This document shows positions 5,930 to 35,324 of a stretch of DNA of 64,000 bases, piece after piece (the first letter of the stretch is position 1; each line of letters starts with the position of its first letter). Both the position numbers and the translations under genes were made by a program. The notes under the pieces are model-generated. The model saw only the letters and a list, made by a program, of their open reading frames with translations, was not told where the DNA came from and ran no database searches. This stretch comes from Planctomycetota bacterium (lineage in GTDB: Bacteria; Planctomycetota; DG-23; DATKVD01), in NCBI GenBank assembly GCA_037439485.1, contig JBBIVY010000003.1, positions 1,452-65,451 of the forward strand, read 5' to 3'.

Positions 5930-5958
5930 GGCTTATGGCTGCGCGTTGCGGCAACCGG

Positions 5959-8697: not shown

Positions 8698-8724
8698 CGG
8701 ATGCCTCCATAATGGGGGGTGTCT

Positions 8725-8750
8725 TGTAGGACAGGCATTCTTGCCTGTCC
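8725..8750. repeat. REP-like element: TGTAGG + imperfect palindrome GACAGGCATTCTTGCCTGTC (family 1)
   Basis: Palindrome recurs at ~61546-61565, ~61574-61593, ~62155-62174, variants at ~62128-62145 and 36770-36789; conserved GTAG tetranucleotide as in RAYT-associated REPs; in 5' leader of ppdK. Confidence 0.6.
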
Positions 8751-9075
8751 GGTCTCTCGGAAGGGTATTCCGAAACATCCCGATTGTATCGACGCTCCGC
8801 CGGAGTGTCAACGCCGTTTTCCGCCGCCCGGCCGCCGTTTTTTCCGCGAATGCCCTTGCCTTCCGCGTGTCCCGCGGGTTGTGTGAAACCTCCCTTTGTC
8901 ACTAAACCTCTCAAGCTGTTGAATGCATTTTTGCGCTGATAATCTCTACAATCACTGAATCCGCGAACTAATGGCTCCCTTGGTGTTTCTTGGGTGGGCA
9001 GTCGAGTGGATGCGGTCCGAGACGGCCTTCGGAGAAGGGACCAAACAGCGGAATCAGGAAATCCCGTAACGTCGG

Positions 9076-9138: not shown

Positions 9139-9214
9139 GTAGGGGCACGGCATGCCGTGCCCGGTCTTTGTTCCATTGGCAGAGAAACGCGGGCACGGCA
9201 TGCCGTGCCCCTAC
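9139..9214 (+). promoter_or_regulatory. twin perfect 20-bp palindromes in pilB leader (GTAG-palindrome ... palindrome-CTAC)
   Basis: GGGCACGGCATGCCGTGCCC at 9144-9163 and 9191-9210, 27 nt apart, flanked by cGTAGg (9139-9142) and cCTACa (9211-9214); between candidate promoter and pilB ATG; operator, attenuator or REP pair. Confidence 0.5.
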
Positions 9215-9239
9215 AGACGGATCGCAGGGGGAACGCCCG

Positions 9240-10961
9240 ATGACGACCGACCATCGCAAGGGTTTCGCGCAGATCCTCATCGAACAGGGCCTCTGCACCA
9301 AGAGCCAGATCAAGGAGGCCTTGGGCATCCAGAAGGAGAAGGGCGGCAAGCTCGGCGACATCCTCGTCGAGCGCGGCTACCTCTCCGAGACGGACAAGGC
9401 CCAGGTGCTCGGCAAGCAGTTCGGCCTGGAGGTCATCGACCTCGACACCTACACCATCGACCCGATGGTGGTGGACCTTCTGCCCCGGGCGCTGGCCCGC
9501 AAACATCAGGTGCTGCCTCTGACCCGAGAGGGCACCCTCGTCAAGGTGGCGATCACCGACCCCCTGGACTTCGAGGCGCTTGACAACCTGCGGTTCATCC
9601 TCAACAGCGAGGTTCAGCCCGTGATCGCGACCCCCGAGGCGGTTCGGAGGTCGATCGACCGGTTCTACGAGACGGAGGTCTCCACCCTCGACCAGGCCGT
9701 CAGCGACTTCACCGACGTGGGCGATGGGGAGTCCGGCGAGTCGTCGCAGAGCTTCGACCTGGGCGCGGCGGGGGGCGAGGACGACGACGCGCCCGTCATC
9801 CGCCTGGTGCGGCTCATCATCTCCGAGGCGGTGAAGTCGCGCGCGAGCGACATTCACATCGAGCCGCTGGAAAACCGTCTCCGCATCCGCTACCGCGTCG
9901 ACGGCGACTGCATCGAGGTCGATTCCCCGCCGAAGCGCCTGCAGAACTCCATCATTTCCCGCGTCAAGATCATGTCGGGCATGCAGATCGAGGAAAAGCG
10001 TCTGCCGCAGGACGGGCGCATCCGCATCCGCATCCGCGGCAAGGAGATCGACATCCGCGTGTCGACGCTGCCGGCGAGCCACGGCGAGAGCGTGGTGCTG
10101 CGCTTGCTGGACAAGGAAAACGTCATGGTCGGCGTCGAGAAACTCGGCTTCCACGAGACCGACCGGATGCGGTTCGAAAAGATCATCAAGCGGCCGAACG
10201 GCATCTTCCTCGTGACGGGCCCCACGGGCTCGGGCAAGACGACGACGCTCTACTCGGCGCTCCAGGAACTCAACCGGCCCGACCGCAAGATCATCACCGC
10301 CGAGGACCCCGTCGAGTACAACATCTCCGGCATCAACCAGTGCGAGGTGAAGGAGCGCATCGGCATGACGTTCGCGCGAATCCTGCGCGCGATGCTGCGG
10401 CAGGCGCCCAACGTCATCCTCGTCGGCGAGATCCGCGACGGCGAAACGGCCGAGATCGCCATCCAGGCCGCGCTCACCGGGCACCTTGTCTTCTCCACGC
10501 TTCACACCAACGACGCCCCGTCCGCCATCACCCGGCTCATCGACATGAAGATGGCCCCGTTCCTCGTCGCCAGCTCCATCCAGGCGATCATGGCCCAGCG
10601 TCTCGTCCGCGTCATCTGCGCGGAGTGCAAGGAGCCCTGGGAGGCAGACCCCAAGCTCTGCTCCGGCATCGGGCTGGGCTCTCAGCAGCTCGAGGGGCGC
10701 ACGCTCTATCACGGCCGCGGCTGCCGCGCCTGCGTCAGCACCGGCTATCACGGCCGTCTTGGCATCTTCGAACTGATGGAAATGACCCGGCAGATCCGCG
10801 AAATGGCCTTCCGCATGGAGCCGACCAACGTCATCCGCGATCAGGCCCGCCGTTCGGGCATGGTGACGCTGCAGGAGGATGGCGTGCGCAAGGTCCTCGC
10901 GGGCATCACGACCGTCGAAGAGATTCTCACCAACGCGTCGCGCGACACGGTCCTCGCCTGA
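9240..10961 (+). CDS. pilB: type IV pilus assembly / type II secretion ATPase, PilB/GspE family
   Basis: ORF 9168-10961 trimmed to ATG 9240 (SD AGGGGG 8 nt upstream); N-terminal T2SSE_N-type domain, Walker A GPTGSGKTTTLY, Asp box and Walker B, tetracysteine CAECKEP...GRGCRAC; 573 aa. Confidence 0.9.
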   Translation: MTTDHRKGFAQILIEQGLCTKSQIKEALGIQKEKGGKLGDILVERGYLSETDKAQVLGKQFGLEVIDLDTYTIDPMVVDLLPRALARKHQVLPLTREGTLVKVAITDPLDFEALDNLRFILNSEVQPVIATPEAVRRSIDRFYETEVSTLDQAVSDFTDVGDGESGESSQSFDLGAAGGEDDDAPVIRLVRLIISEAVKSRASDIHIEPLENRLRIRYRVDGDCIEVDSPPKRLQNSIISRVKIMSGMQIEEKRLPQDGRIRIRIRGKEIDIRVSTLPASHGESVVLRLLDKENVMVGVEKLGFHETDRMRFEKIIKRPNGIFLVTGPTGSGKTTTLYSALQELNRPDRKIITAEDPVEYNISGINQCEVKERIGMTFARILRAMLRQAPNVILVGEIRDGETAEIAIQAALTGHLVFSTLHTNDAPSAITRLIDMKMAPFLVASSIQAIMAQRLVRVICAECKEPWEADPKLCSGIGLGSQQLEGRTLYHGRGCRACVSTGYHGRLGIFELMEMTRQIREMAFRMEPTNVIRDQARRSGMVTLQEDGVRKVLAGITTVEEILTNASRDTVLA

Positions 10962-11025
10962 TACGGACGGCTGTGCCGGCCCCCCGAAAGGGGGTGTCTG
11001 GAGGGAAGAAAGGAACTGCACGTTC

Positions 11026-12189
11026 ATGTCCGAGCAGCGATCTATCCTGATGGAGAAGCTTCTCCAGACGGTCATCGAGCAGGACTCCAGCGACTTGCAC
11101 CTCGTCGTCGGGCGTCCGCCGACCGTCCGGCTCAACGGCCGCCTGGTCTCGCTGAAGACCCGCATCCTCATGCCCGAGGATACGGTCGCCCTGATGAAGA
11201 GCATCACCCCCGAACGCTCGATGCAGGAGCTTCAGGCGGAGGGGACCTGCGACTTCGGCTTCGCCTTCGGCGACCAGGCCCGGTTCCGAGTCTCGGTCTT
11301 CCGCCAGAAGGGGCGGATCAGCCTGGCCCTCCGACTCATCCCGCACAGACTTTTCACTTTTGAAGAAATCGGCCTGCCACCCATCATCAAGTCGCTGCTC
11401 TATCAGCCCCGAGGACTCTTCCTCGTCACCGGGCCCACCGGGTGCGGCAAGACCACCAGCCTTGCCACCATGATTGACTTCATTAATACCCGCATGGACC
11501 GCCACATCATCACGGTGGAAGACCCTATCGAGTACTACCACACCCACAAGCGCGGGATCATCAACCAGCGCGAATTGGGGGTGGATGTGCCCACTTTCTC
11601 CGAGGCGCTGCGCCGCGGAATGCGCGCCGACCCCGACGTGATGATGGTCGGGGAGATGCGCGATCTCGACACAATTCAGGCCGCTATTACTGCGGCAGAG
11701 ACGGGACACCTGGTATTCGCAACCCTGCACACCACCGGCGCCGAGGGCACCTGCAACCGAATCATTGACGCTTTCCCCGTTGAGCAGCAGGAACAGGTCC
11801 GCGTTCAGCTCTCCGTGTCGATTCTTGGCGTGATTTCGCAGCAACTCCTTCCCAAGGCGAGCGGAAAGGGCAGGGTGGCCGCCTACGAGTTCATGGTAAC
11901 TACTCCTGCCGTAAGAAACTTGATTCGCGAAAACAAGACCTACAACATCGACTCCCACATTCAGACCGGCAAGCGATACGGCATGATTCTGTTGGACACT
12001 CACTTGTTTGATCTGTGGGAGCAAGGGGTGATCAAGGCGGAGGATGCCCTTCTCAAGGCCCGCAAGCCGAGGGAGCTGGAGCAGAAGATGAGGCAGTACG
12101 AGCAGTCGAAGGGCCGGGTATTCACGGCGAACATTGCGGGCGACGAAGAGCACGGGATGGATATGACGGAGTTGCAGACACCGGGTTGA
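11026..12189 (+). CDS. pilT: twitching-motility retraction ATPase PilT
   Basis: ORF 10879-12189 trimmed to ATG 11026 (SD GGAGGGAAGAAAGGA upstream); LHLVVGRPP, GLFLVTGPTGCGKTTSLA Walker A, ITVEDPIEY, GHLVFATLHT; 387 aa. Confidence 0.9.
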   Translation: MSEQRSILMEKLLQTVIEQDSSDLHLVVGRPPTVRLNGRLVSLKTRILMPEDTVALMKSITPERSMQELQAEGTCDFGFAFGDQARFRVSVFRQKGRISLALRLIPHRLFTFEEIGLPPIIKSLLYQPRGLFLVTGPTGCGKTTSLATMIDFINTRMDRHIITVEDPIEYYHTHKRGIINQRELGVDVPTFSEALRRGMRADPDVMMVGEMRDLDTIQAAITAAETGHLVFATLHTTGAEGTCNRIIDAFPVEQQEQVRVQLSVSILGVISQQLLPKASGKGRVAAYEFMVTTPAVRNLIRENKTYNIDSHIQTGKRYGMILLDTHLFDLWEQGVIKAEDALLKARKPRELEQKMRQYEQSKGRVFTANIAGDEEHGMDMTELQTPG

Positions 12190-12223: not shown

Positions 12224-13993
<1,770 letters not shown>

Positions 13994-14281: not shown

Positions 14282-15541
14282 ATGGGAACCTTCACGTTTC
14301 AGGCGATGAACAGCAAGGGCGACGAGGTCCGCGACGAGATCGAGGCCGGCAGTCAGGAAGAAGCGGTCAATAAGATCCGCGAGCTGGGCCTCTTCCCGAC
14401 GCAGGTGCGCCAGAAGGCGGCGCGCCGGACGGCGGGGGCCGCCGCGGCGCCGACCGCCGCGCGCAAGAAGGGGGCCATGACCCTGGGCGGGGTGTCGAAC
14501 AAGGAGTTGTGCAACTTCACCCGCCAGCTCTCGACCCTTCAGGACGCCGGGCTGCCCCTCGTGCGCTCGCTCAAGATTCTCGAAGGCCAGATGAAGCCCT
14601 GCAAGCTGAAGGACGTCCTCACCGATGTCGCCGACGACGTGGAAAGCGGAAGCACCTTCTCCGAGGCCCTCGCCAAGCACCCCCGCGCGTTCGACCGGCT
14701 CTACGTCAACATGGTGCGCGCCGGCGAGGCGGGCGGCGTGCTCGACACCATTCTCGATCGTCTTGCCGAGTTCAAGGAAAAGGCCCGCGCGTTGCGCCGG
14801 AAGATCATCGGCGCGATGATCTACCCCGTCGTCGTCATCACCATCGCCACGGCCATCCTCATCCTCATCATGACCATCATCGTGCCCAAGTTCCAGGAGA
14901 TCTTCCGGTCGTTCGGCCAGCAGTTGCCCGTCATGACCAAGCTGCTCATCGGCACCGCCACGTGGCTGCAGAATTACATCCTCTTCATCATCATGATCCC
15001 GTTCATCGTCTACATCGCGTTCAAGCTGATCAAACGGACGCGGGGCGGGCGCTACTTCTTCGACAACGTCAAGCTGCACATGCCGATTTTCGGGCAGATC
15101 GCCAGCAAGTCGACGGTCAGCCAGTTCTGCCGCACGCTCGGGACGCTCATCGCCTCCGGCGTGCCGATCCTCGAGGCGCTCAACATCGTCCGCGACACCA
15201 CCGGCAACGAGGTCATTGCCCGCGCCATCGGCAAGGTCCACGACTCGATCCGCGAGGGCGACACCATCGCCGAGCCGCTCCGGGCCTCCGGCGTCGTCGA
15301 CGAGATCGTCGTCAACATGATCGACGTCGGCGAGGAAACGGGCGAGCTGGACAAGATGCTCATCAAGGTCGCCGACACGTTCGACGACGAGGTCGACACG
15401 CTCGTCGCCAGCATGATGAGCCTCATCGAGCCCCTCATCATCGTCGTCCTGGGCGGCGCGGTCGCGTTCATCGTCATCAGCCTCTTCCTGCCGCTCGTCG
15501 CGCTCATGACCAGCGTCAGCAACTCGGCGCAGAACGGTTGA
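14282..15541 (+). CDS. pilC: type IV pilus / T2SS inner-membrane platform protein PilC/GspF
   Basis: 419-aa ORF; two T2SSF-type repeats, three TM segments, typical N-terminal MGTFTFQAMNSKGDEV... Confidence 0.9.
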   Translation: MGTFTFQAMNSKGDEVRDEIEAGSQEEAVNKIRELGLFPTQVRQKAARRTAGAAAAPTAARKKGAMTLGGVSNKELCNFTRQLSTLQDAGLPLVRSLKILEGQMKPCKLKDVLTDVADDVESGSTFSEALAKHPRAFDRLYVNMVRAGEAGGVLDTILDRLAEFKEKARALRRKIIGAMIYPVVVITIATAILILIMTIIVPKFQEIFRSFGQQLPVMTKLLIGTATWLQNYILFIIMIPFIVYIAFKLIKRTRGGRYFFDNVKLHMPIFGQIASKSTVSQFCRTLGTLIASGVPILEALNIVRDTTGNEVIARAIGKVHDSIREGDTIAEPLRASGVVDEIVVNMIDVGEETGELDKMLIKVADTFDDEVDTLVASMMSLIEPLIIVVLGGAVAFIVISLFLPLVALMTSVSNSAQNG

Positions 15542-15616
15542 CGGAGGCGGCGCGGCGCACGGAAGGTGAAGCTCTTTTGGCCCCCGCGGCGGGGCGGAGC
15601 CGGAAAGGAGATCGTC

Positions 15617-16258
15617 ATGACGGACCGTTCGAAGCCGAAGGCGTTCACCCTCATCGAGCTGCTCGTCGTGATGACCATCATCATGTCCCTGGCGGCGCTC
15701 CTCCTGGTCGCCATCACCGGGGCCCGGCGCTACGTCACCAAGGCCAAGACGTCCGGGGACATCTCCAATATGATGACGGCCCTGACGCAGTACTATAACG
15801 ACTTCGCCGCGTATCCGCCGGGCCCGGTCGACACCGCCAAGGACGCCGGGGCCTCGCTGGACGACAGCTCGTGCGGCGCCGGCGCGATTCCCGCGGACCC
15901 GAACAAGCCGCTCGCCACGGAGCTTCAGCTTCGGACCATCGGCGCCAAGCTGACCATCGAAGGCGGCAACCGCACCGTCGGCCCGTACTACTCCCCCAAT
16001 CCGAACCAGGTCGACAGGAACGGACACCTGATCGACGCCTGGGGCAAGTCGTATCGCTACTTCCCCGACGGCCGTAACACGGTGATCGACCCGTCGACGG
16101 GGATGCGGAAGCCCAGCCGCGTCGAGCGCGGGCCCGTCATCTGGAGCCTCGGACCCGACACCAAGCAGGACCCGCTGAACGACAACGTGGACAACGACAA
16201 CGACGGCCACGTGGACAACGGCGCCGAGCTGGTGGACGACATCTGCAGTTGGAACTGA
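15617..16258 (+). CDS. prepilin-type N-terminal cleavage/methylation domain protein (pilin/pseudopilin, 213 aa) with Asp-rich C-terminal motif
   Basis: ORF 15566-16258 trimmed to ATG 15617 (SD GGAAAGGAG); MTDRSKPKA-FTLIELLVVMTIIMSLAALL with Glu at +5; C-terminus NDNVDNDNDGHVDNGAELVDD. Confidence 0.8.
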   Translation: MTDRSKPKAFTLIELLVVMTIIMSLAALLLVAITGARRYVTKAKTSGDISNMMTALTQYYNDFAAYPPGPVDTAKDAGASLDDSSCGAGAIPADPNKPLATELQLRTIGAKLTIEGGNRTVGPYYSPNPNQVDRNGHLIDAWGKSYRYFPDGRNTVIDPSTGMRKPSRVERGPVIWSLGPDTKQDPLNDNVDNDNDGHVDNGAELVDDICSWN

Positions 16259-16304: not shown

Positions 16305-16901
16305 ATGAAGTCACGGCGTAGCGCGTTTACGCTCCTGGAGCTGATGATCGTCATCGGGATCATCTGCGTGCTGGCGGGGTTCCTCTTCGCCGCCGCGTCG
16401 ATGGCCCAGCAAGCGGCGAAGAAACAGCGATCCTCGGCCGTCGTTCAGCTCCTCGCCGTGGCCTGCGACAACTACTGGAAGGACTACCACGACTATCCGT
16501 ATCCCAACCCGGACGTCGTGGGCGCCGGGACGAACACGCTGGGCGCCAACGCGGCCTTCCGCGCGGCCTATTACAAGAACGGGTCCTGGACGACCGACGG
16601 CATCAACATCGCGCTGGTGTGGATGCTCAGCATTTCGCGCAACCCCGAGCCGTTCCTCGACCTGAACCAGAAGTGGTTCGTGAAGATCCCGGAGGCGGCC
16701 ACGGGGCCGGACGGGCGGACCCTCTACAAGTGCCAGGACGGCTTCGGCAATACCATTAACATCGACCGGCCGGCGCAGTACTACTACACGAACACCTACG
16801 TGCGCATCACCTCCGCCGGGCCGGACGGGAAGTTCGGCGTGCTCGGCTCGACCACCGACACGAACGCCAAGGACAACATCGAGCAGTACCTGAAGCGGTA
16901 A
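16305..16901 (+). CDS. prepilin-type pilin-like protein (198 aa)
   Basis: MKSRRSA-FTLLELMIVIGIICVLAGF N-terminal class III signal and hydrophobic helix; two Cys in C-terminal half. Confidence 0.8.
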   Translation: MKSRRSAFTLLELMIVIGIICVLAGFLFAAASMAQQAAKKQRSSAVVQLLAVACDNYWKDYHDYPYPNPDVVGAGTNTLGANAAFRAAYYKNGSWTTDGINIALVWMLSISRNPEPFLDLNQKWFVKIPEAATGPDGRTLYKCQDGFGNTINIDRPAQYYYTNTYVRITSAGPDGKFGVLGSTTDTNAKDNIEQYLKR

Positions 16902-16948
16902 TCTGCGCCGGGCGGCGCGACGGCACTCGGGGGACGTGGGCTCGGACG

Positions 16949-17671
16949 ATGATGACACGCGACGGCAAACGAGGCTTCACGATCATCGAGCTGCTGATGG
17001 TCATCGCGATCATGATGGTGATCGCGGCCATGGCCCTGCCTTACTTCGTCGCGATGCAGAAATCGCGCAAGTGGACGACCGCCGTCACCAACATCCAGTC
17101 CATGGTCTGGCGCGCCCGGGCCCTGGCCACCAACGTCCGCCGCGACTTCGCCGTCGAGTTCAATTGCCAGGGCGACTGCGGGACCCAGATGGTCGTCGTC
17201 GCCAAGAGCAACCTCCTCCAGCGCCTGCCCGACCTCAACTGGCTAGAGCACAACCTCGGCGACGGCGGCAATATCGCCTGGATCATCTGGGGGGAGTGGG
17301 AGTACGCCGGGGGGCCCATCAACTGGGATGGGAAGTATTACCAGAACCTCTCCCCGGGCGACATCCATCCCAATCCCACGAACTCGACGTTCATCGGCAA
17401 CTATGGCCACAATTCGTATCAGAGCGAGGTCTTGGCGGTCCACCCCGATCTGACCATCGACCCGTCGACGACCGCCAGCCCGAATTTCATCAACTGGGAC
17501 CAGAACTGCTACTACGGGGCCGACACGACCCCGGACATCCGCATCGGGCCCAACGGCGCGCTGGTTCAGACGCAGGACCCGACGCTGTGCATCAAGCAGA
17601 TCCGCGGCACCGAGATGATACGCGTGGAGGTTATCCGCTGCACCGGGCGGCTCAAGCAACTGCAGCGTTAG
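16949..17671 (+). CDS. minor pseudopilin, GspH/FimT-like
   Basis: MMTRDGKRG-FTIIELLMVIAIMMVIAAMALPYF; canonical Gly at -1; GspH-like N-terminal segment. Confidence 0.7.
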   Translation: MMTRDGKRGFTIIELLMVIAIMMVIAAMALPYFVAMQKSRKWTTAVTNIQSMVWRARALATNVRRDFAVEFNCQGDCGTQMVVVAKSNLLQRLPDLNWLEHNLGDGGNIAWIIWGEWEYAGGPINWDGKYYQNLSPGDIHPNPTNSTFIGNYGHNSYQSEVLAVHPDLTIDPSTTASPNFINWDQNCYYGADTTPDIRIGPNGALVQTQDPTLCIKQIRGTEMIRVEVIRCTGRLKQLQR

Positions 17672-17788
17672 AAGCGGTTTTGGGTTTTAGGTTTTGGCTT
17701 TTGGATTGAAGAGCAAACGGCGCCCGGATGGCGGGCCTTGCCGTGAATCCAAAATCCAAAAGCCAAAACAGGAAAAAAGGAGGTCGCG

Positions 17789-18763
17789 ATGATAAACATG
17801 AGGCGCTCCCATAAGAGCGCGTTCTCCCTGGTCGAGCTCCTGATCGCCTTCTTCGTGCTGCTCATCGGCATCCTGGCGGTGCTGGTGCTCTTCCCGCTGG
17901 GGCTGCGCGAATCGAAGACGATGGTGGACGCCTCGATGGCGGCCATCGAGGCCCGCAACGCGCGGAGCATGATGGAGGTCGAGACGTTCAATTACACGGG
18001 CGACGGGATGACGAAGCTTGGCTACGGCACCGCCTCGATGATCCAGGCGAAGTATGGGCCGAAGGGGTCGAACTCGGGCCTCGCGAACTTCCCGGTGATG
18101 TTCCCCTGGGACGTGCTGGGGGGCAACGACGACTCGATCTTTCCGCTGACTTCGCGCCCCATTGACTGCGCGACGACGCACCGCGACCGCGTCATCGACG
18201 TCAATACCCCGCAGTATTCCTGGGACGCTCGGTTCACCGTCGGCGGCGGCCCCGGTCTCACGCCTCCGCCGGGGTTCCTCTATTCCAACGCCGCCGCCTG
18301 GCAGAACGATTACTTCTGGTGGTTCAGCCAGTACTTCAAGTACTACGCCGTCCAGATCTCGGTCTACCGCAACTTCCAGGCCCTCACCGTAGGGCAGGGG
18401 ACCGTCTGGCTGCGCGCGGCGCAGAAGTCCGGGGGCGGCGACTACGACGTGACCGACCCCAACCGCCCGCTCTGGTCGGAAGTCGTCGTCGCCAACCAGC
18501 CGCCGTCGGAGATCGTCGTCGGCTCGGCCATTCGCATCCGCGACGACAAGAGCGACTGGTACAAGGTGACGGGCGTGTCGTACGACGGCTCCCAGTGGCA
18601 TTTCAAGCTCGACCGGCCGTACGCAGGGTTGAACCTCGGGAGCGCCACGTCCACCAGCGCCTCGAAGACCGACGTCATCGCCACGAACACGCTGATCGAT
18701 TCGTTCACGACGCTGCTCGGCTCGCAGCTCGACGACATCGACTCGAGCACGTCGAATTACTAG
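17789..18763 (+). CDS. minor pseudopilin, PilV/GspI-like
   Basis: MINMRRSHKSA-FSLVELLIAFFVLLIGILAVLVLFPLG, PilV/GspI-style N-terminus; SD AAGGAGG upstream. Confidence 0.7.
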   Translation: MINMRRSHKSAFSLVELLIAFFVLLIGILAVLVLFPLGLRESKTMVDASMAAIEARNARSMMEVETFNYTGDGMTKLGYGTASMIQAKYGPKGSNSGLANFPVMFPWDVLGGNDDSIFPLTSRPIDCATTHRDRVIDVNTPQYSWDARFTVGGGPGLTPPPGFLYSNAAAWQNDYFWWFSQYFKYYAVQISVYRNFQALTVGQGTVWLRAAQKSGGGDYDVTDPNRPLWSEVVVANQPPSEIVVGSAIRIRDDKSDWYKVTGVSYDGSQWHFKLDRPYAGLNLGSATSTSASKTDVIATNTLIDSFTTLLGSQLDDIDSSTSNY

Positions 18764-18796
18764 GCCGAGCGGATCGTGTTGCCGGGGAGCGCAGGC

Positions 18797-19669
18797 ATGA
18801 GGCGATCGGGGAATGCCTTCACGCTGCTGGAACTGCTGGCGGCGATCACGCTGCTGGTGATCCTGGGGACGATGCTTTTCCAGGTGTTCCAGCAGGCGTC
18901 AAGCGTCGTGGAGATCGGCAACGCCCGGCAGGAGGTTTACCAGTATGCGCGGGCGGCGCTGGAGTTCCTGCAGCGCGAGCTGGGCGGCTCGTTCACCGGC
19001 GTCGACTCCGATTCCGCCCTGAGCGCCGGCAACGGTATCCGCGGCATGAGGATCTACGCCTCGGGCACGACGATGGGCGCCAACGTGAAGCGGCGCGCCG
19101 CCAGCCAGGGCGTCTTCTTCACCTCCGGCGTCATGGCGCGCGACACCCGCCAGACCTACCCGGACGGCAGCACGAACCCCTTCTTCGGACGCGACGTCAA
19201 CTGCGCCCGCATCGCCTACTACCTGAACGACTGCACGACGAAGCTGACCGATGCGGCGGTCTGCCGCTCGGAAAGCTACATGCTCAACGTGATCGACCCG
19301 GACTGCGGCGGGCCCTTCCTGCGCAACTGCATGTTCTTCACCATTGAGACCATGAGCCCGTTCCCGAACGAGAGCCCGGCTTTGTTCCGCACCGTCGACT
19401 GGGACAGCGAGGGGTACGCGTCGCCGGGCGGCTTTCAGCGCCGGCGCGGGCTGCCCGAGGCGATCCGCATCACGTTCCGCATGACCGACGAGCGACGCGC
19501 GATGCTCTACCGCTGGGACGCCGCGGATACGGACCCGAACACCGGCGCCGCCGGGCAATGGCGCGTTCCCGGGCCGGACGGCACGCTGACGAAGGACTAT
19601 GCTTCTCAGGAGGATCCGATCGCGCAGACGTTCAGGAATATCGTGTTCTTCGGGCGCCGGTCCGACTGA
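18797..19669 (+). CDS. minor pseudopilin, PilW/GspJ-like
   Basis: ORF 18776-19669 (GTG) trimmed to ATG 18797 (SD GGGGAG); MRRSGNA-FTLLELLAAITLLVILGTMLFQVFQQASSVVEIGNARQEVYQYARAALEFLQREL (GspJ/PilW-like). Confidence 0.7.
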   Translation: MRRSGNAFTLLELLAAITLLVILGTMLFQVFQQASSVVEIGNARQEVYQYARAALEFLQRELGGSFTGVDSDSALSAGNGIRGMRIYASGTTMGANVKRRAASQGVFFTSGVMARDTRQTYPDGSTNPFFGRDVNCARIAYYLNDCTTKLTDAAVCRSESYMLNVIDPDCGGPFLRNCMFFTIETMSPFPNESPALFRTVDWDSEGYASPGGFQRRRGLPEAIRITFRMTDERRAMLYRWDAADTDPNTGAAGQWRVPGPDGTLTKDYASQEDPIAQTFRNIVFFGRRSD

Positions 19670-19717: not shown

Positions 19718-22700
19718 GTGGCATTTTCAGCGGACGTGCGCTGCGGGGGCTTCGCGGCGGGATGCGCCCGATTCCCTCGCTCCTCCTCGCGCGGCAGCGC
19801 GCTGGTTCTCGTGCTGTCGATGCTCGCGATGCTCTCCGTGGTCGCCACCACGTTCGTGATGCTGACGCGGCTCGACGTGCGCATCACGCAGAACTACGTC
19901 GACGACCAGCGCTGCGATCTCCTGGCCTATGGCCTCGCCAACTACTTCAAGGCCGTTGTCCGCGACGACCTCGACCACACTTGGCGGCTGCCCTACGCCT
20001 TCAGGCACGCCAACCGCACCACGGGCGTCGGCTTCTACTCCAAGGATTACGGAGATCACTCGGCCCCGCGCCGGCAAATCCCCGGCATCGTCGAGTACGC
20101 CTGGGGCACGCCCGTCTCCAACACCTTCTGGTTCAGCGCCCCGTGGACCACGTGGGGCCAGTCCGGCGGCGGTGGCATCTACGCGGCCGGTATCGCCGGC
20201 GGCTACACCTACAACGACGTCACCCAGCAGTCCTTCGCCTGGAGCGACAAGTTCAACCAGGCCAATGGCTTCATCGGGCGCTACGCCGAGGACGCGAACT
20301 ACGAGTGCGACGTCTGGGTGGGCTTGGCGAACAACGCGCGCGATCAGAACGGCCGGCACTGCGCGACCAACTACGTCAACGGCGGCGCCCTCCAGCCCAT
20401 CGACGACGACGCGGACGGCGTCACCAACCCCGACTACGACGGCGCCGGCTTCTCCGGCGAAAACAGCGTCGTGTACGATTACCTTTACGACTCGGTGCCC
20501 CTGGTCATGCAGTCGGGCAAGACGGGTTTTCAGCCCGGCGCGCGGCTCACCGGCGAGGCGGCGATGCCGGGGGGCACGTACTGGCGCTGGGGTGTCAAGA
20601 TCGGCCCGACGCACTCCACCTACGCCAACCTCAACACCGCCGGCAACATGGACGGCATCGACGCGCAGTGGCTCGCGAATATGGGCGCCGGCACCTCCGG
20701 TGCCGTCGGCGCCCTCCGCGCTCAGGACGAGGCCGCCGACACGACCGTCGACGGCTCGCCCAACGCGCACCTCGGCCGCATCGACTGGAACGGCTTCCCC
20801 CCGTCCTACGACTCCGTCATGTTCCATCCGTCCGCCGTCAATCTCGAACGCCTGCTCCACCGGCCCAATTTCGCCGGCGTGACGGGCGGGTCGCTGACGG
20901 GCGACCTGGGCCTCTCCCGCGATTACGCGCGGAAGCTCATCCGCTACCGCATGACGGGCGATCCGAACTACGCGGGCGTCCCGGTGCCGGGCGGCGGCAA
21001 CTCATATCGCGCCGGGTGGCGTCGCGACGGGGCGAGCTACTTCAAGTTCCCCTCGCCCGAGAACCCCTTGGGTAAGGAGCGATACTACGGCGCCAACGAG
21101 GTCATCGAGCACGGTCATTCGCAGGACAATCCCGCGACCAGCGCCGTGGCGGGCATCCTCGGAGACGATCCGTGGCGCGTCCTTCGGCCCTACGTGACGA
21201 TGTGGTCCACGGATACCATCCTGCGCGGAAAGATATTCCCCGGCGAGGGTGGCCCCGGCATGGGCGGCTACACGGCCACCGTCGGCGACTGGCGCAACAT
21301 CAACATCCTGAAGCGCGTGAACGTGAACATCATCGGGGCCAACGGCCAGCCGATCGGCCTCTCCGGCGAGCAGACGGAGCTCAAGGCCCGGTGGGCGGCC
21401 AAGCGCGGCGCCGAGCAGACGCGGCTCTATTACATGCTCAAGGCCGCGCTGAGCTGGGGGGGCTTCAGCGGCGCTACGCAGGCCTGGGGCGGCCAGACCA
21501 ACGGGCCCATGCTGGCTTGCCAGTTCATCGCGGCGCTGTCCGACATGGTGGACACCGATCAGAATGAGACCTGCTTCATCGCGCCCGACGGCTCCGGCGC
21601 GTGGGGGCTGGGATACGAGAAACACCCCGTCATCAACGAGGTCGCGTTCTTCTCCAACTCCGGGGCCAACACCGCCAACTATGCGCTCTTCCGCTTGCGC
21701 GTGGAACTCTACAACCCGTCCGAGCTCATCCCGTGGTACCCGGCCGCCGACCAGGCCTACGACGTGTCGCAGTACGTCCTCCAGGTCGGGACCCACTACT
21801 TCCGTCTCGGCGCGCTGCGCAGGTTCATCACCGTCGGGAACGGCTGGAGCGACGGCGGGACCATCGATGCGTCGCCTAATATCGGGGCCGACGGGATGTA
21901 CGGCATGCCGGTGGCGGGCTATTACCTGGGCGGCACCATCAACCCGGACCCGTCGTGGAGCCGGTACGTGCAGGTGGGATGGATCGGTTCGGGCGGGACG
22001 AGCGGCGAGTTTCCGAACGGCGTGACCTATGAGGAACTTCAGGGAGGCCCGACGCCGGTCACCGGATCGGCCCAGTTCACGGGCGTCACCATCGCGCTCT
22101 GGAAGCCGGTGAACGTCCCGGGCGCCGTGCCCGACACGGCCTATCTCGTGACCGGCCTGGGCGGCTTCGGCGGACGCTATCTGATGGTCGATACCACCGG
22201 ACCCATCCAGCTTGTCCGTCCGTGGAACGTGACCAACGGCGAGAACGGCCCCGGCCAGGTTGTTGAACCCCCGGTCAACCGCAACAAGACCAACTACACC
22301 GGCGTCTACCGTCGCTGGGACCCGATGAACGGCAAGATCTTCACGGGCACCGGCGGCACTGCCGGCGGCAAGAGCGACGTGGGCAATGTCCTCTGGTGCC
22401 CGGGCTGGACGATGGCCCGGGCGGCGACTCTCGGCCGGCCCAACACCGAGTACTGGCCCAACATGTATTCGACCGACGACCCCGGCACCGTCGGCGCTCC
22501 TCCGACCGCGGGGGCCGGAACGTACCGCCGCTATTACGAGCGCAACGTCAAGGTCGTCGACGGCGACATCCCCAGCATCGGCTGGCTCGGCGAGTTGATG
22601 ATGTGGAATCGCGCCGTCAGCGGCCCGCTCACGCAGATCCACGCGACGGGGCAGGACCCGAGCAAGACCATCGGCACCAACGGCAGCGGCACCCGCAGCG

Positions 22701-23575
22701 TTACGGCCAACCAGCTCGACACGCTGGCAAAGTTCGATCTTTACCGGCCGTTCGCCCCCGCAGGCGCCTATGACCCCGACTCCACCAAAGTCGTCTGCAA
22801 GGGATTGCACATTCTCGACATGTTCACCGTGTGGGACCCCTCGAACGACGGCATCGACAACGACGGCGACGGGGCGGTGGACGACGACGACACCGGCCTG
22901 CAGGCCGGCGATAAGTACGGTCCCGAGGTCCGCGTCCACGGGCTCATCGACCTCAACCAGGTGCCCGACCCGGTGATGGCCTCCGTCTGGCCCGACAACC
23001 CCGTCGTCCGCAACGCCAACAAGCAGGGCTACCCGATCGGCTTTATGGCGAACATGCGGCAGAACTCCCGTCAGTCCTCCTACAGCGACGGCATCGGCCC
23101 CTTCGAGACCGTCGGCGACATCCTGCGCGCCGACGCCATTACGCGCTACCCGGGGATCTGGATGTCCGGGAGCTGGTACGGGCCCGGGCCGGGCGCCATC
23201 GACGAGGGCGGTTTCCTCGCCTCCGGCACCGCCACGCATACCGACGACGACGGCGACGGCATCTACGACGAGCGCGACGAACGCGACATGATGTTCACTT
23301 GGATGGCCAACTACTTCACCACCCGCGACAATGTTTTCGACCTCGACCTCAACGTCCAGATCTGCGACCCGCCTTACTATCCGCAGAAGAACGGCGCCAA
23401 CCTCAAGCTGCCGTGGCCGGCCTACAAGACCAAGCGCGTCTACGCCCACAAGCAGTTCCTGGGCATCCTCGACCGCAGCACCTGCCTGCGCATCCGGACG
23501 AACGGCGCCTGCGACTTCACCGGGCCGGTCGACCTCCGTCTCTTCCGATCGAGCGACGACGTGCCGGCTTTCTGA
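19718..23575 (+). CDS. giant GspK/PilX-like minor pilin / putative tip adhesin (1285 aa) with multiple Asp-rich calcium-loop motifs
   Basis: GTG start with SD GAGAAAGG; N-terminus ...RGSALVLVLSMLAMLSVVATTFVMLTRLDVRITQNY typical of GspK; motifs DDDADGVTNPDYDG, DGIDNDGDGAVDDDDTG, HTDDDGDGIYDERDERD; last gene before terminator. Confidence 0.75.
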   Translation: MAFSADVRCGGFAAGCARFPRSSSRGSALVLVLSMLAMLSVVATTFVMLTRLDVRITQNYVDDQRCDLLAYGLANYFKAVVRDDLDHTWRLPYAFRHANRTTGVGFYSKDYGDHSAPRRQIPGIVEYAWGTPVSNTFWFSAPWTTWGQSGGGGIYAAGIAGGYTYNDVTQQSFAWSDKFNQANGFIGRYAEDANYECDVWVGLANNARDQNGRHCATNYVNGGALQPIDDDADGVTNPDYDGAGFSGENSVVYDYLYDSVPLVMQSGKTGFQPGARLTGEAAMPGGTYWRWGVKIGPTHSTYANLNTAGNMDGIDAQWLANMGAGTSGAVGALRAQDEAADTTVDGSPNAHLGRIDWNGFPPSYDSVMFHPSAVNLERLLHRPNFAGVTGGSLTGDLGLSRDYARKLIRYRMTGDPNYAGVPVPGGGNSYRAGWRRDGASYFKFPSPENPLGKERYYGANEVIEHGHSQDNPATSAVAGILGDDPWRVLRPYVTMWSTDTILRGKIFPGEGGPGMGGYTATVGDWRNINILKRVNVNIIGANGQPIGLSGEQTELKARWAAKRGAEQTRLYYMLKAALSWGGFSGATQAWGGQTNGPMLACQFIAALSDMVDTDQNETCFIAPDGSGAWGLGYEKHPVINEVAFFSNSGANTANYALFRLRVELYNPSELIPWYPAADQAYDVSQYVLQVGTHYFRLGALRRFITVGNGWSDGGTIDASPNIGADGMYGMPVAGYYLGGTINPDPSWSRYVQVGWIGSGGTSGEFPNGVTYEELQGGPTPVTGSAQFTGVTIALWKPVNVPGAVPDTAYLVTGLGGFGGRYLMVDTTGPIQLVRPWNVTNGENGPGQVVEPPVNRNKTNYTGVYRRWDPMNGKIFTGTGGTAGGKSDVGNVLWCPGWTMARAATLGRPNTEYWPNMYSTDDPGTVGAPPTAGAGTYRRYYERNVKVVDGDIPSIGWLGELMMWNRAVSGPLTQIHATGQDPSKTIGTNGSGTRSVTANQLDTLAKFDLYRPFAPAGAYDPDSTKVVCKGLHILDMFTVWDPSNDGIDNDGDGAVDDDDTGLQAGDKYGPEVRVHGLIDLNQVPDPVMASVWPDNPVVRNANKQGYPIGFMANMRQNSRQSSYSDGIGPFETVGDILRADAITRYPGIWMSGSWYGPGPGAIDEGGFLASGTATHTDDDGDGIYDERDERDMMFTWMANYFTTRDNVFDLDLNVQICDPPYYPQKNGANLKLPWPAYKTKRVYAHKQFLGILDRSTCLRIRTNGACDFTGPVDLRLFRSSDDVPAF

Positions 23576-33983: not shown

Positions 33984-35324
33984 TTACTTATCGTCCTTCA
34001 GCTTGAGTCCCATGCCGGCGAGCTTCGAGCGGATCTCGTTGAGCGAGGTCTGGCCGAAGTTCTTGCACTCGAGCAGTTCGGGCTCGGAGCGGTCGCAGAG
34101 GTCGCCGATGGTGACGAGGGCCAGCTTGGACATGCACTTGCGCGAGCGGACGGAAAGCTCGAGTTCGGCGAGCGGCTTGGCTTTGATGGCGTCGAGTTCG
34201 GACTTGCCGCGGGAGCCGAAGGGCGTCGAGCGGGGCTTCGGGGCGTCCTTCTCCATCGCCTGGCCGAGGCGCAGGCCCTTCGAGGTCATCATGCTCTTGA
34301 TCTCGTTGAGCGAGGTCTCGCCGAAGTTCTTGAAGCTCAGGAGGTCCTGTTCGGTGACGCGCGTCAGGTCGCCCAGCGTGTGGACGCCCATCTTGTCCAG
34401 GCAGTTGCGCGAGCGGACGGAAAGCTCGAAGTCCGTGACCGGGATCTCGAGGACCTTGTTCTGGCGGTCCTGCTTGCGCTCGAGCTCCTCGTCGTAATAC
34501 ATCGTGAGGGAACTCTGGGTGTCGCGGAGGAAGAGCTTGGCGCGCTCGTGGGTCGGCTGCCACTTGATCACGCGCTCGAAGCAGCGGGCCGCCTCCTCAT
34601 AGCGCCCGGCGTCCTCGTAGAGGATGCCCAGGTTGATCAGCGCGTTCACGTGAACCGGCCGCACGCCCGCGCACCGCTCGTAGAGATCCAGCGCCTCTTC
34701 GTCGTCCCCGCGCAGGTCCGCGTTGTAGGCCAGGCGGAAGAGCGAATTCGCGTGCGACGGGTTGATCTCGATCGCTTTCGAGTATTCCTCGATGGCGCCG
34801 TCGTAGTTCTGGGCCACGTCGTGCATCATGCCCATCTGGTAGTGATATTCGGCGTCGCCGTCGTGCTTCTTGCCGAGCGCCAGCAGGGCCTTGTCGGCGT
34901 CCGCATGCTCGCCGCAGCCGCGAAGCGCCGCGACCTTGCCCAACTCGTAGGCGAGCTTCGATTCCTTCTCGGCGAGCTTCGCATAAAGCTTCAGCGCCGA
35001 GCGGAACTGCCCGGCGGCCAGCGCGCACTCGGCCTCCAGCTCGCGCGCGAAGTCGTCGCGCTTCACCTCGGCGAGGCTCTCCGCCGCGCCTTCGAACCGC
35101 GAGAGCACCCACTGAAGCGCCCCGAGCTGGTAGTAGAGGTCGTGCGACTTGTCGGTGTTGCGGGCCTTCTTCGCCTTCTCCGCCAGGTCCGCCACGGCCG
35201 TCGCAATCTGCCGGCGTAGCGGGGCGTCCACCGACGCCTTCATCTTCAGCTCCGCCAGCTTCGCGCCGGCCAGGTCCTCGATCTTGATCTCTCCGAGCCC
35301 TTCGATGGTCAGTGCTTCGCTCAT
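33984..35324 (-). CDS. TPR-repeat protein with two tandem RNA polymerase alpha-subunit C-terminal-domain-like (alpha-CTD) modules
   Basis: 446 aa; N-terminal ~280 aa TPR-like; two copies of alpha-CTD-like motif ELSVRSRNCLDKMGVHTLGDLTRVTEQDLLSFKNFGETSLNEIKSMMTSKGLRLG and ELSVRSRKCMSKLALVTIGDLCDRSEPELLECKNFGQTSLNEIRSKLAGMGLKL. Confidence 0.75.
   Translation of the reverse strand: MSEALTIEGLGEIKIEDLAGAKLAELKMKASVDAPLRRQIATAVADLAEKAKKARNTDKSHDLYYQLGALQWVLSRFEGAAESLAEVKRDDFARELEAECALAAGQFRSALKLYAKLAEKESKLAYELGKVAALRGCGEHADADKALLALGKKHDGDAEYHYQMGMMHDVAQNYDGAIEEYSKAIEINPSHANSLFRLAYNADLRGDDEEALDLYERCAGVRPVHVNALINLGILYEDAGRYEEAARCFERVIKWQPTHERAKLFLRDTQSSLTMYYDEELERKQDRQNKVLEIPVTDFELSVRSRNCLDKMGVHTLGDLTRVTEQDLLSFKNFGETSLNEIKSMMTSKGLRLGQAMEKDAPKPRSTPFGSRGKSELDAIKAKPLAELELSVRSRKCMSKLALVTIGDLCDRSEPELLECKNFGQTSLNEIRSKLAGMGLKLKDDK

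Follow-up and report, generated by a model that had tools for sequence, protein, structure and literature searches.

Genes of the operon

The stretch of DNA analysed here (the window, 64,000 nucleotides) contains a conserved operon, read on the + strand, in which PilB/GspE, PilT, PilB/GspE and PilC/GspF genes are followed by five pilins in G-H-I-J order and, as the last gene, by a giant pilin gene. The first PilB/GspE-type assembly ATPase (9168..10961, +; Pfam T2SSE, MshEN) carries an MshE-type c-di-GMP-binding N-domain; its NCBIfam PilB (636 bits) and GspE (627 bits) scores are both slightly below cutoff, and NF053729 scores 56.5 against a cutoff of 38. The PilT/PilU-family retraction-type ATPase (10879..12189, +; Pfam T2SSE) passes the NCBIfam TIGR01420 cutoff, with 440.7 bits against 319.1. 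A second PilB/GspE-type assembly ATPase, again with an MshE-type N-domain, lies at 12224..13993 (+), and the platform protein PilC/GspF at 14282..15541 (+; Pfam T2SSF; NCBIfam GspF 403.7 and PilC 403.3 bits, both sub-threshold).

The probable major (pseudo)pilin (15614..16258, +; 213 aa, KA/FTLIELLVV; Pfam N_methyl) matches the GspG model at its N-terminus only, and its C-terminus is GspG-like in sequence. Four further pilin-like proteins are encoded downstream, whose model matches lie at their N-termini: one of 198 aa (16305..16901, +; SA/FTLLELM; Pfam N_methyl, GspG/GspH), one of 240 aa in the GspH position (16949..17671, +; RG/FTIIELL; GspH and Verru_Chthon cassette protein D), one of 324 aa in the PilV/GspI position (17789..18763, +; SA/FSLVELL; Pfam N_methyl, PilV and Verru_Chthon cassette protein B), and one of ~290 aa in the GspJ/PilW position (18776..19669, +; NA/FTLLELL; GspJ, ComGE and Verru_Chthon cassette protein C). 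Among the scanned window ORFs we detected neither a secretin nor PilMNOP, GspCLM or a prepilin peptidase; by gene content, the machine could therefore be either a pilus or a secretion pseudopilus.

The last gene encodes a GspK-class prepilin

The ORF list and translation place the giant pilin gene, which has 37 homologs, at 19718..23575 (+), with a GTG start preceded at 9-15 nt by the purine-rich GGAGAAAGG and a product of 1285 aa plus stop. P0001, the corresponding public gene model (1251 aa), begins at Met35; this start falls inside the hydrophobic helix, and the model is probably truncated. The predicted prepilin-type leader, residues 1-26 (19718..19795, +), ends in SSSRG ahead of a cleavage site that the motif places at G26/S27. 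The N-terminus, ...SSSRG/SALVLVLSMLAMLSVVATTFVMLTRLD, aligns residues 25-89 with positions 2-66 of NCBIfam T2SS_GspK (E 2.4e-6; its 27 bits fall well short of the cutoff of 130) and weakly with Pfam PilX_N (E 0.015), a weak match also seen in 9 of 22 family members. At the junction, RG/SALVLVL, residue +5 is Leu and Glu5 is absent; the pattern (R/N)GS(A/G)L(I/V) recurs in family members and distant giants. The alpha1 helix, residues 27-88 (19796..19981, +), delimited by T2SS_GspK, PilX_N and AF2 helices, consists of a hydrophobic alpha1-N without Glu5 and an amphipathic alpha1-C; in the AF2 model of homolog P0014, predicted helices correspond to residues 28-59 and 65-88 of the window protein.

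None of the curated GspK, T2SSK and PilX models reached its cutoff on the 1285-aa protein, profile searches against PDB sequences did not retrieve GspK, and an hhalign comparison with one E. coli GspK gave no significant score. GspK and XcpX were the best non-trivial fold matches (references: PDB 3CI0 chain K and 5VTM chain X; NCBIfam NF037980; Pfam PF03934). The initial annotation had described the 1285-aa ORF as a minor pilin of GspK/PilX type with some four times the usual length, and the T2SS_GspK and weak PilX_N matches agree with that description: the product is a GspK-class prepilin of unusually large size. Like GspK/XcpX, it has a Glu5-less prepilin-like N-terminus, is encoded by the final gene of a G-H-I-J-K pilin block, and has an extra domain within the pilin fold, HhH-like 'INxNTA' motifs and C-terminal strands of its own. 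Unlike them, it falls far below every curated cutoff, and its insert comprises ~1100 residues, against ~150 for the inserted alpha-domain of GspK/XcpX.

A large Planctomycetota family of giant pilins

The 37 close homologs, full-length or partial, are 40-63% identical to the window protein; all come from metagenomes or MAGs, and every named one is from Planctomycetota. An exhaustive profile search retrieved 343 related 50%-identity clusters at E<=1e-3, about 13 of them full-length family members and more than 60 other giants (850-1550 aa) with the same N-terminus, central module and C-terminal ~340 aa. The distant giants have the GSALIL N-terminus in common with the window protein, and some giant relatives match Pfam T2SSK/HhH and NCBIfam GspK at borderline scores, the GspK model at both the N- and the C-terminus. 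These giant, putative tip pilins form a large, unannotated Planctomycetota family. Several paralogous giants occur per genome, each accompanied by minor pilins of its own, an arrangement suggestive of exchangeable tips. One satellite cassette adjoins a GH123-like glycosidase gene.

The curated, uncharacterised Verru_Chthon cassette A-D (NCBIfam TIGR02600, TIGR02596/8/9) likewise combines one ~1300-aa protein with small pilin-like proteins. Models B, C and D are matched by the N-termini of the window pilins, and model A weakly by the N- and C-terminal ends of distant giants; the window giant has no match to TIGR02600 at E<=0.1, and the remaining Verru_Chthon scores are far below their cutoffs.

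Modular architecture of the giant pilin

The most conserved family-specific block, residues 426-575 (20993..21442, +; GWRRDG..SPENP..GANEV.EH..WSTDTILRGK..ILKRVNxNIIGA; conservation 0.69-0.84), has many invariant residues, low AF2 confidence up to ~530 and, in a profile comparison with the distant giants, no match beyond the family. It is followed by a central module shared with distant giants, residues ~565-668 (21410..21721, +), to which about half of the distant giants match at profile positions 512-613. Here two long helices (553-580 and 586-611, within the better-predicted span of the AF2 homolog model) lead into an acidic motif, L-x-D609-M-V-D612-x-D614-x-x-E617-T, with D609, D612 and E617 invariant in the family, and then PVINEV. 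The acidic motif resembles GspK 'DYIDVDD' at the pattern level only, a likeness that we note as a lead. Residues ~636-760 (21623..21997, +; boundaries approximate) probably form a lamin-tail (LTD)/Ig-like beta-sandwich. The longest variable stretch, residues 701-925 (21818..22492, +), has a conservation of 0.41-0.60 per 25-aa block and indels among homologs; it is a candidate specificity-determining surface that may bind a ligand.

The C-terminal module, residues ~945-1285 (22550..23572, +), is common to the whole superfamily, with profile matches in more than 60 distant giants, and hhalign of this region against a Phycisphaeraceae protein at locus L009 gave a probability of 97.5%. AF2 modelling of residues 925-1285 from an 88-sequence alignment (mean pLDDT 72) predicts a helix and three confident strands. 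The helix, residues 1186-1202 (RDERDMMFTWMANYFTT; 23273..23323, +; H262-278 of the model; 10-residue blocks at pLDDT ~79-76), is present also in the full-length homolog model and runs into the C-terminal sheet, whose strands are 1206-1216, 1241-1252 and 1272-1278 (23333..23551, +; E282-292, E317-328 and E348-354; blocks at pLDDT ~81-93). Their motifs TTRxNVFxVxL, ILDRST and VxxRxLR are kept in family and superfamily. We propose that these strands close the pilin sheet in cis, by analogy with the cis strand of GspK (PMC13533445).

Within the same module, GLIDLNQVPDPVMASVWPD at residues 1075-1093 (22940..22996, +) is a degenerate counterpart of the GspK/ComEA-type helix-hairpin-helix (HhH) motif 'GRININTAPWYVIAQLPW', aligning column for column with ININTAP of the distant giants. 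Their ININTAP region matches Pfam T2SSK at 25.4 bits in P0147 (cutoff 24.2) and 23.7 bits in P0097, and matches HHH_3 too. Such matches, which in relatives include HHH_3 and ComEA-type HhH models over ININTAP...AIVAYRD, could speak for a competence-type pilus with a DNA-receptor tip, in which the HhH and the LTD-like sandwich would bind extracellular DNA, as in ComZ or other DNA-binding minor pilins; the PilT of the operon would suit such a retractile system. We regard this as very unlikely. The HhH of the window family is degenerate (GLIDLNQVPDPVMASVWP), with no HhH model matching the window protein or 22 members, the same HhH-like motif occurs in canonical GspK, where a DNA role is not known, and com genes are absent nearby among the scanned window ORFs.

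Conserved DxDxDG loops and the relation to PilY1

A motif search located three 12-residue DxDxDG loops, at residues 229-240, 1047-1058 and 1176-1187, whereas 20,000 composition-preserving shuffles gave a mean count of 0.07 and never reached three. Loop 1 (20402..20437, +; DDDADGVTNPDY) has D229 and G234 invariant within the family; DxDGDG is also present in the N-terminal part of the superfamily consensus A8 (88 sequences), and a sub-alignment of distant giants shows ADADGDG just ahead of the hairpin IIDNGGMLNVNTA. Loop 2 (22856..22891, +; DNDGDGAVDDDD) is a complete EF-hand-like 12-mer, conserved superfamily-wide, with D1047, N1048, D1049, G1050, D1051, G1052, A1053, D1055, D1058, T1059 and G1060 invariant; sub-threshold matches liken it to a PDB teneurin-4 fragment and a deseasin protease motif. 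Loop 3 (23243..23278, +; DDDGDGIYDERD; AF2 block pLDDT ~76-79) runs into an invariant ERD: D1176, E1188, R1189 and D1190 are invariant, D1178, G1179, D1180, G1181, E1185, R1186 and D1187 are at least 90% conserved, and the superfamily consensus is gDG..DDfEERD. Loops 2 and 3 are ancestral to the whole superfamily, and loop 1 probably is too.

The three Asp-rich stretches were quoted exactly in the initial annotation, and all hold a conserved, EF-hand-like DxDxDG. They are not the low-complexity linkers without conserved spacing that the annotation named in its counter-scenario: all three loops keep the same register across 18 homologs (44-54% identity). Judging from their sequence, the loops probably bind Ca2+, and calcium probably stabilises the giant pilin. 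Canonical GspK binds two or three Ca2+ ions, at two canonical sites with a third in XcpX (PMC6211770). The sequence motifs of the GspK calcium sites differ from the DxDxDG loops of the giant.

The same annotation suggested that the protein might be a GspK/PilX priming pilin fused to a PilY1-like adhesin, a model in which calcium would gate extension and retraction against PilT. As it stated, no PilY1 gene lies in the operon, nor is there one among the scanned window ORFs. Also in favour of the model, a true PilT-family ATPase is in the operon, the loops are conserved and EF-hand-like, and large tip proteins (PilY1, MshQ, CpaL) in general either attach to PilK-class pilins or take their place (PMC13533445). 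Like PilY1/PilC adhesins of type IVa pili (~1000-1200 aa), the giant is very large, has a presumed tip site and EF-hand-like calcium motifs, and belongs to a PilT-containing system. PilY1, however, is a non-pilin with a C-terminal beta-propeller that joins the tip in trans, donating its last strand to PilX/PilK (PMC13533445), while the giant has a pilin N-terminus and no sequence or fold similarity to it. At E<=1, neither the window protein nor any of 22 family members matched the Pfam models Neisseria_PilC (the PilY1 propeller), VWA, Calx-beta or TSP_3, and no beta-propeller was among the fold matches. Loops 2 and 3 sit in the C-terminal module common to the superfamily of GspK-like giants and, probably together with loop 1, are ancestral to that superfamily. 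Calcium sites already exist in canonical GspK and GspG (PMC6211770), and the major pilin of the operon has a DxDxDG-type loop of its own (DNDNDG). Together these points favour a structural role of the calcium sites in filament subunits, a simpler reading than a PilY1-type retraction switch. At the level of homology the PilY1 fusion with a calcium switch is unsupported, and we consider it improbable; of the proposed combination of priming and adhesion, the GspK-class pilin stands and the PilY1 homology does not. It is plausible that the cap subunit itself carries the tip effector, with PilY1 not needed.

A probable self-capping tip subunit

The product might instead cap a non-adhesive type II secretion pseudopilus, with an insert that makes contact with the substrates of secretion or with the channel in the outer membrane, and not with ligands outside the cell. 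The T2SS order of the pilin block (G-H-I-J-K), a major pilin that is GspG-like at both ends, ATPases and a platform protein that score equally well with the GspE and GspF models, the best fold matches being the T2SS proteins GspK and XcpX, and the glycosidase gene beside a satellite cassette all point this way. We nonetheless hold this reading to be unlikely. Unlike GspK/XcpX systems, the conserved operon includes a PilT-family ATPase, which T2SSs are without, and lacks GspC, D, L and M, which are absent from syntenic loci as well; a cap domain of ~1100 residues and enlarged I/J/H pilins do not sit easily with a periplasmic piston, and several paralogous caps per genome better suit diversified external binding.

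We favour, as the likely interpretation, that this Planctomycetota bacterium builds a retractile type IV filament and that the gene product is the self-capping, GspK/PilX-class cap subunit of it, with ~1100 residues inserted in the pilin fold of the product. Based on the sequence motifs, prepilin peptidase would cut at G26/S27, leaving alpha1 (27-88) as membrane anchor. The giant and the enlarged GspH/I/J-position pilins (16949, 17789, 18776) would form an initiation complex that serves as template for the polymerising major pilin (15614); the giant would therefore be the outermost subunit. Its own C-terminal strands (1206-1278) would close the pilin sheet, as in GspK and CpaL, so that no strand-donating PilY1-type partner would be needed. 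The ~1100 residues that separate alpha1 from these strands, with helical/HhH remnants, the LTD/Ig-like sandwich and the variable stretch 701-925, would be displayed at the tip, where the three EF-hand-like loops may take up Ca2+ and make the extracellular module more rigid, an effect that calcium has in GspK and GspG. The variable stretch could bind a ligand such as a surface, polysaccharide or other polymer, making the giant probably a ligand-binding tip, and paralogous giants with their own minor pilins would be alternative tips.

CpaL/TadG of Tad pili, S. sanguinis PilB, Thermus ComZ and ETEC CofB are also large, minor-pilin-like tip subunits with a grafted or inserted effector module (PMC13533445, PMC8179133); CpaL completes its N-terminal pilin sheet with its very C-terminal end, and its middle region is partly dispensable (PMC13533445). 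We found no sequence relationship of the giant to these proteins. Their modules are vWA, beta-solenoid and lectin folds, whereas the giant carries HhH remnants, an LTD-like sandwich and unassigned folds.

Gene start and N-terminus of the giant pilin

An unbroken ORF runs on the plus strand from a GTG at 19718 to a stop codon at 23573-23575, and its translation yields the uninterrupted 1285-aa protein claimed in the initial annotation, here called the giant pilin and used for all residue numbers. The purine-rich GGAGAAAGG lies 9-15 nt 5′ of this GTG. In the public entry with the same protein sequence (P0001, 1251 aa) the start is set at Met35, midway along the hydrophobic helix, so that the region at 19718-19822 loses the prepilin leader. 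Since the public start falls within the hydrophobic helix, that gene call is probably truncated; the GTG at 19718, with GGAGAAAGG upstream, restores the predicted leader that P0001 is missing. This leader ends in RG and is followed by SALVLVLSMLAML, so that a hydrophobic α1 is present with Leu at position +5 and no Glu5. Cap pilins of the GspK class are known for having no Glu at this position. The stretch SSSRG followed by SALVLVLSMLAMLSVVATTFVMLTRLDVRITQNY aligns with the initial 66 positions of NCBIfam's model for GspK (NF037980, E 2.4e-6), and together with the leader and α1 this bears out the GspK/PilX-type N-terminus proposed at the outset, at scores far below cutoff: 27.3 bits against 130 for NF037980 and a weak 15.7 bits against 25.5 for PilX_N (PF14341, E 0.015). 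T2SSK (PF03934) had no match in the giant by Pfam scan, and none of the three curated cutoffs was reached. The giant pilin probably works like GspK and is distantly related to it, but is fourfold larger and lies below every curated membership threshold.

An operon for a probable PilT-equipped type IV filament

The giant pilin gene is the last of a co-directional plus-strand block with the order E-T-E-F, five pilins and giant, and the order is identical in a related metagenomic contig (L002/L003). The block contains a PilB/GspE-type ATPase (9168-10961), a PilT/PilU-family ATPase (10879-12189; its TIGR01420 score of 440 bits exceeds the cutoff of 319), another PilB/GspE-type ATPase (12224-13993) and PilC/GspF (14282-15541). 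Both PilB/GspE-type ATPases carry an MshE-type c-di-GMP-binding N-domain above cutoff, which suggests that filament assembly may be under c-di-GMP control. These two ATPases are paralogous and lie on either side of the PilT gene. As listed, some 80 nt are shared between the ORF of the first of them and the PilT ORF, so one of the two starts is probably further downstream.

The platform gene is followed by the probable major pilin in the G position (15614-16258), which has KA followed by FTLIELLVV at its N-terminus and a GspG-like end (...DDICSWN). Prepilin N-termini are likewise found in the pilins of the "extra" position (198 aa, start 16305), the H position (240 aa, start 16949), the I position (324 aa, start 17789) and the J position (about 290 aa, start 18776). 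The window pilins (198-324 aa) are all larger than their classical counterparts. The giant pilin gene stands last after a major pilin and H/I/J-type pilins, beside ATPase and platform genes. The N-termini of the minor pilins (16305-19669, plus strand) weakly match proteins D, B and C of the Verru_Chthon cassette.

The window ORFs scanned include neither a secretin nor PilMNOP, GspCLM, a prepilin peptidase or PilY1, in agreement with the earlier remark that the operon has no PilY1 gene; nor does the operon contain a separate PilX/GspK-like gene. Cap pilins decide the assembly and tip contacts of type IV filaments, and the best-supported reading makes the giant pilin such a subunit, in a type IV filament equipped with PilT. 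Gene order and the GspG and GspK affinities would also suit a cap for a T2SS pseudopilus; however, the PilT gene is conserved in the operon, the GspC/D/L/M genes are missing from the operon and its syntenic loci, and the cap is of sheer size, and we regard a T2SS cap as quite unlikely. Upstream of the operon is the gene of a pyruvate phosphate dikinase, on the minus strand (5959-8808), and downstream are NUDIX, PLP enzyme and DapB genes. Two long plus-strand ORFs at 5935-7485 and 7663-8712, whose translations are rich in Arg, Ala, Asp and Leu, were rejected as operon genes because they are shadow ORFs of the dikinase gene.

Searches for known domains

Pfam and NCBIfam scans of the giant pilin and 22 family members returned only weak N-terminal PilX_N and GspK matches, with no match to PilY1, VWA, Calx-beta, TSP3 or HhH; the thrombospondin type 3, Calx-beta and VWA models had no Pfam match even at E<=1. 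The C-terminal PilY1/PilC beta-propeller model (PF05567) has no match in the giant pilin. Neither homology nor fold lends support to the proposal that the protein combines a minor pilin with a PilY1-like adhesin and a calcium switch. PilY1/PilC is a non-pilin adhesin that donates its C-terminal strand to PilX/PilK, whereas the giant itself has a pilin-type N-terminus and its operon lacks a separate PilX/GspK-like gene, which argues against docking of the PilY1 type.

Profiles of the full family, of its C-terminal region and of the superfamily C-terminal region did not recover GspK from the PDB, and gave motif-level matches only (teneurin-4, EEP-family HhH and subtilase). Alignment by hhalign to the single sequence of E. 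coli K-12 GspK found nothing significant, the best lead being residues 277-324 against E. coli GspK 184-239 at 8% probability. Plasmid sequences yielded hardly any GspK other than EtpK of E. coli. The only curated family of like layout is the Verru_Chthon cassette, which is uncharacterised and comprises a protein A of ~1300 aa and the pilin-like proteins B, C and D. Its models are matched weakly, and at termini only, by the window pilins and some distant giants: protein A (TIGR02600, cutoff 332 bits) had no match to the giant pilin at E<=0.1, and distant giants reached up to 17 bits at the model ends only. Our literature search turned up no account of GspK-type giants from Planctomycetota.

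A family of giant pilins in Planctomycetota

Word-indexed searches identified 37 close relatives, all from metagenomes or MAGs and all named ones from Planctomycetota; a repeat search of this kind found no further relatives. In a scan of species-representative genomes, one Planctomycetota MAG proved to carry three paralogs and another a full-length relative with 30% identity, and a Phycisphaeraceae protein matched residues 1032-1207 only. An exhaustive HMMER search with the family profile against 1.84 billion representatives showed that the giant pilin is not a one-off: at E<=1e-3 we observed 343 related clusters, including about 13 of the full-length family and >60 other large proteins of 850-1550 aa. 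Nearly all of these clusters are unannotated and every named one is from Planctomycetota. The distant giants have the GspK-type N-terminus ((R/N)GSALIL...), also without Glu5. About half of them share a central module (residues ~565-668), and a C-terminal module (residues ~945-1285) is common to the distant giants, with the consensus YLTVFDPxxDgIDNDGDG ... PExKVPGRININTAPWYVIAQLPW ... AIVAYRD ... GFxSIGEL, continuing as DDFEERDvIFxRISNLVTVRSDVFTAYILVRi ... KRviAILDRS ... VkvxAlhpVPDpR.

The ININTAP...AIVAYRD stretch of distant relatives matches Pfam T2SSK, whose cutoff of 24.2 bits is approached or reached by distant relatives only (25.4 bits in P0147, 23.7 bits in P0097), and also HHH_3. Several relatives match the NCBIfam GspK model with their N-terminus, and the C-terminus of one matches positions 213-283. 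The family C-terminal profile aligns with the Phycisphaeraceae protein at 97.5% probability over 200 columns (hhalign). From the superfamily matches and the T2SSK, HHH_3 and GspK hits, it follows that the C-terminal region of the giant pilin is homologous to a module which, in relatives that have diverged less, can just be recognised as the HhH region of GspK. In the window family itself the HhH motif has decayed to GLIDLNQVPDPVMASVWP (residues about 1075-1092).

Genomes often have several giant copies, and paralogous giants each come with one or two pilin genes of their own; one MAG carries three copies or more. Examples of these include a tandem array of three giants (1270, 1296 and 1270 aa), every one accompanied by a gene for a 244-278-aa pilin (locus L011, 5013-18701); a second giant, 46% identical, with two flanking pilins directly 3′ of the operon (L002, 13876-19137); and a stand-alone pilin-pilin-giant cassette adjoining a GH123-like glycosidase gene (L010, 5836-11370).

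Conserved calcium-type loops

The three Asp-rich motifs of calcium-loop type reported in the initial annotation were confirmed as DxDxDG cores within 12-residue EF-hand-like patterns: DDDADGVTNPDY at residues 229-240, DNDGDGAVDDDD at 1047-1058 and DDDGDGIYDERD at 1176-1187. Shuffled versions of the giant pilin contain a mean of 0.07 DxDxDG, and none of 20,000 reaches three. We asked of these loops whether they could be low-complexity linkers without conserved spacing, and find that they are not, since their register is kept in an alignment of 18 homologs with 44-54% identity to the giant. Among these homologs loop 2 is near-wholly invariant, and nearly all acidic and Gly positions of loop 3 are either invariant or show conservation of 90% or more. 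Conservation of loops 2 and 3 extends to the whole superfamily. A DxDGDG loop is also found in the N-terminal part of the consensus of an 88-sequence alignment, and in the sub-alignment of distant giants it directly precedes the hairpin IIDNGGMLNVNTA. The DNDGDGxxD of the loop 2 region has a short, motif-level likeness in the PDB to a teneurin-4 fragment (E 0.12) and a deseasin protease motif (E 9.8).

The major pilin at 15614-16258 ends in ...DNVDNDNDGHVDNGAELVDDICSWN, with its own DNDNDG loop near the GspG-like C-terminus, and the calcium-loop theme therefore reaches the main subunit of the filament. Canonical GspK binds two Ca2+ and XcpX three (PMC6211770). Given these ions and the loop in the major pilin, the three loops of the giant are most simply predicted to be structural calcium sites that would stiffen its extracellular module. 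As ancestral features of the scaffold they argue against the calcium switch of a PilY1 fusion; a regulatory role for calcium in the giant pilin is possible.

Predicted structure and content of the insert

An AF2 model of P0014, a 1196-aa homolog standing in for the 1285-aa giant, was built from 22 sequences and has low overall quality, with a mean pLDDT of 51. It contains a long α1 helix at residues 28-88 and has moderate confidence at ~179-252 and ~530-1028. A separate AF2 model of residues 925-1285 places three conserved strands near the C-terminus, in blocks with pLDDT of about 81-93. From these models we infer that α1, the N-terminal strands and the C-terminal strands form a pilin fold with an insertion of ~1100 residues between them, and that the non-pilin module is thus probably inserted rather than appended. 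Apart from beta-sandwich elements, the insertion is without a solved counterpart.

The family conservation profile shows strongly conserved, family-specific blocks at 426-575 (GWRRDG..SPENP..GANEV.EH..WSTDTILRGK..ILKRVNxNIIGA) and a conserved block at 601-700 (ACQFIAxLxDMVDxDxxET ... PVINEV ... RVELYNP), with others at 951-975, 1026-1075, 1176-1200 and 1251-1275. Residues 701-925 form a long variable stretch, and there are indel hot spots besides. An acidic motif, D609-x-x-D612-x-D614-x-x-E617, comes after a long helix and has a pattern-level resemblance to the 'DYIDVDD' region of GspK.

The giant pilin has the layout of a modular pilin, a pilin N-terminus with ~1100 more residues that include a probable lamin-tail (LTD)-like sandwich and HhH remnants. 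The HhH and LTD remnants are the sole basis for reading the protein as a DNA receptor; because they are degenerate in the window family, we consider this highly improbable. CpaL/TadG, ComZ and the 'modular pilins' (PMC8179133) are analogous to the giant, with no detectable homology.

A putative self-capping, ligand-binding tip

As the cap subunit of the filament, the giant pilin would, after prepilin processing, join the pilins of the H, I and J positions in nucleating assembly and then stay at the distal filament tip, where its three loops would bind calcium and stiffen the extracellular module. The PilK/GspK sheet needs a terminal strand for its completion, and this strand is provided in trans by PilY1/PilC or in cis in GspK, some PilK orthologs and the ~600-aa CpaL, which can largely do without its middle part during assembly (PMC13533445). 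The giant pilin would fit the cis class, and this would explain an operon with no need for PilY1. The giant family is a natural test case for this recent model of cis versus trans strand complementation in tip assembly, and it suggests that a GspK scaffold can carry >1000 inserted residues.

The size of the insert, the sandwich domain, the variable stretch and the repeated paralogous giants with their own pilins point to a ligand-binding tip, and make the giants concrete candidates for tip receptors of planctomycetal pili. Cassettes of a giant and its own pilins recall the alternative minor-pilin/PilY1 sets of other bacteria. Dextran-binding, pili-like fibres of planctomycetes have been described without molecular identity (PMC5394234), and a tie between these fibres and the giant family is speculation. 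One joint reading, unlikely when taken as a whole, is that in Planctomycetota the PilX-plus-PilY1 pair was replaced by a single self-capping, calcium-stiffened giant tip pilin that then multiplied, so that several exchangeable tip cassettes per cell, each a giant with its own minor pilins, would give a retractile, c-di-GMP-controlled pilus differing capture specificities; this could be the basis of the polysaccharide-binding fibres (PMC5394234), catching polymers for uptake. The calcium loops and the variable region are defined targets for experiments. For annotation, giants now labelled 'hypothetical' or 'HhH domain protein' can be better annotated, and the public start of the window protein looks truncated.

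Other features of the window

Two further ORFs of the window lie on the minus strand. The ORF at 661-3795 encodes 1044 aa with a fibronectin type III domain and is otherwise unannotated. The ORF at 33984-35321 encodes a 445-aa protein of unusual architecture, with TPR repeats and two RNA_pol_A_CTD domains (Pfam, E 2e-42, two stretches).
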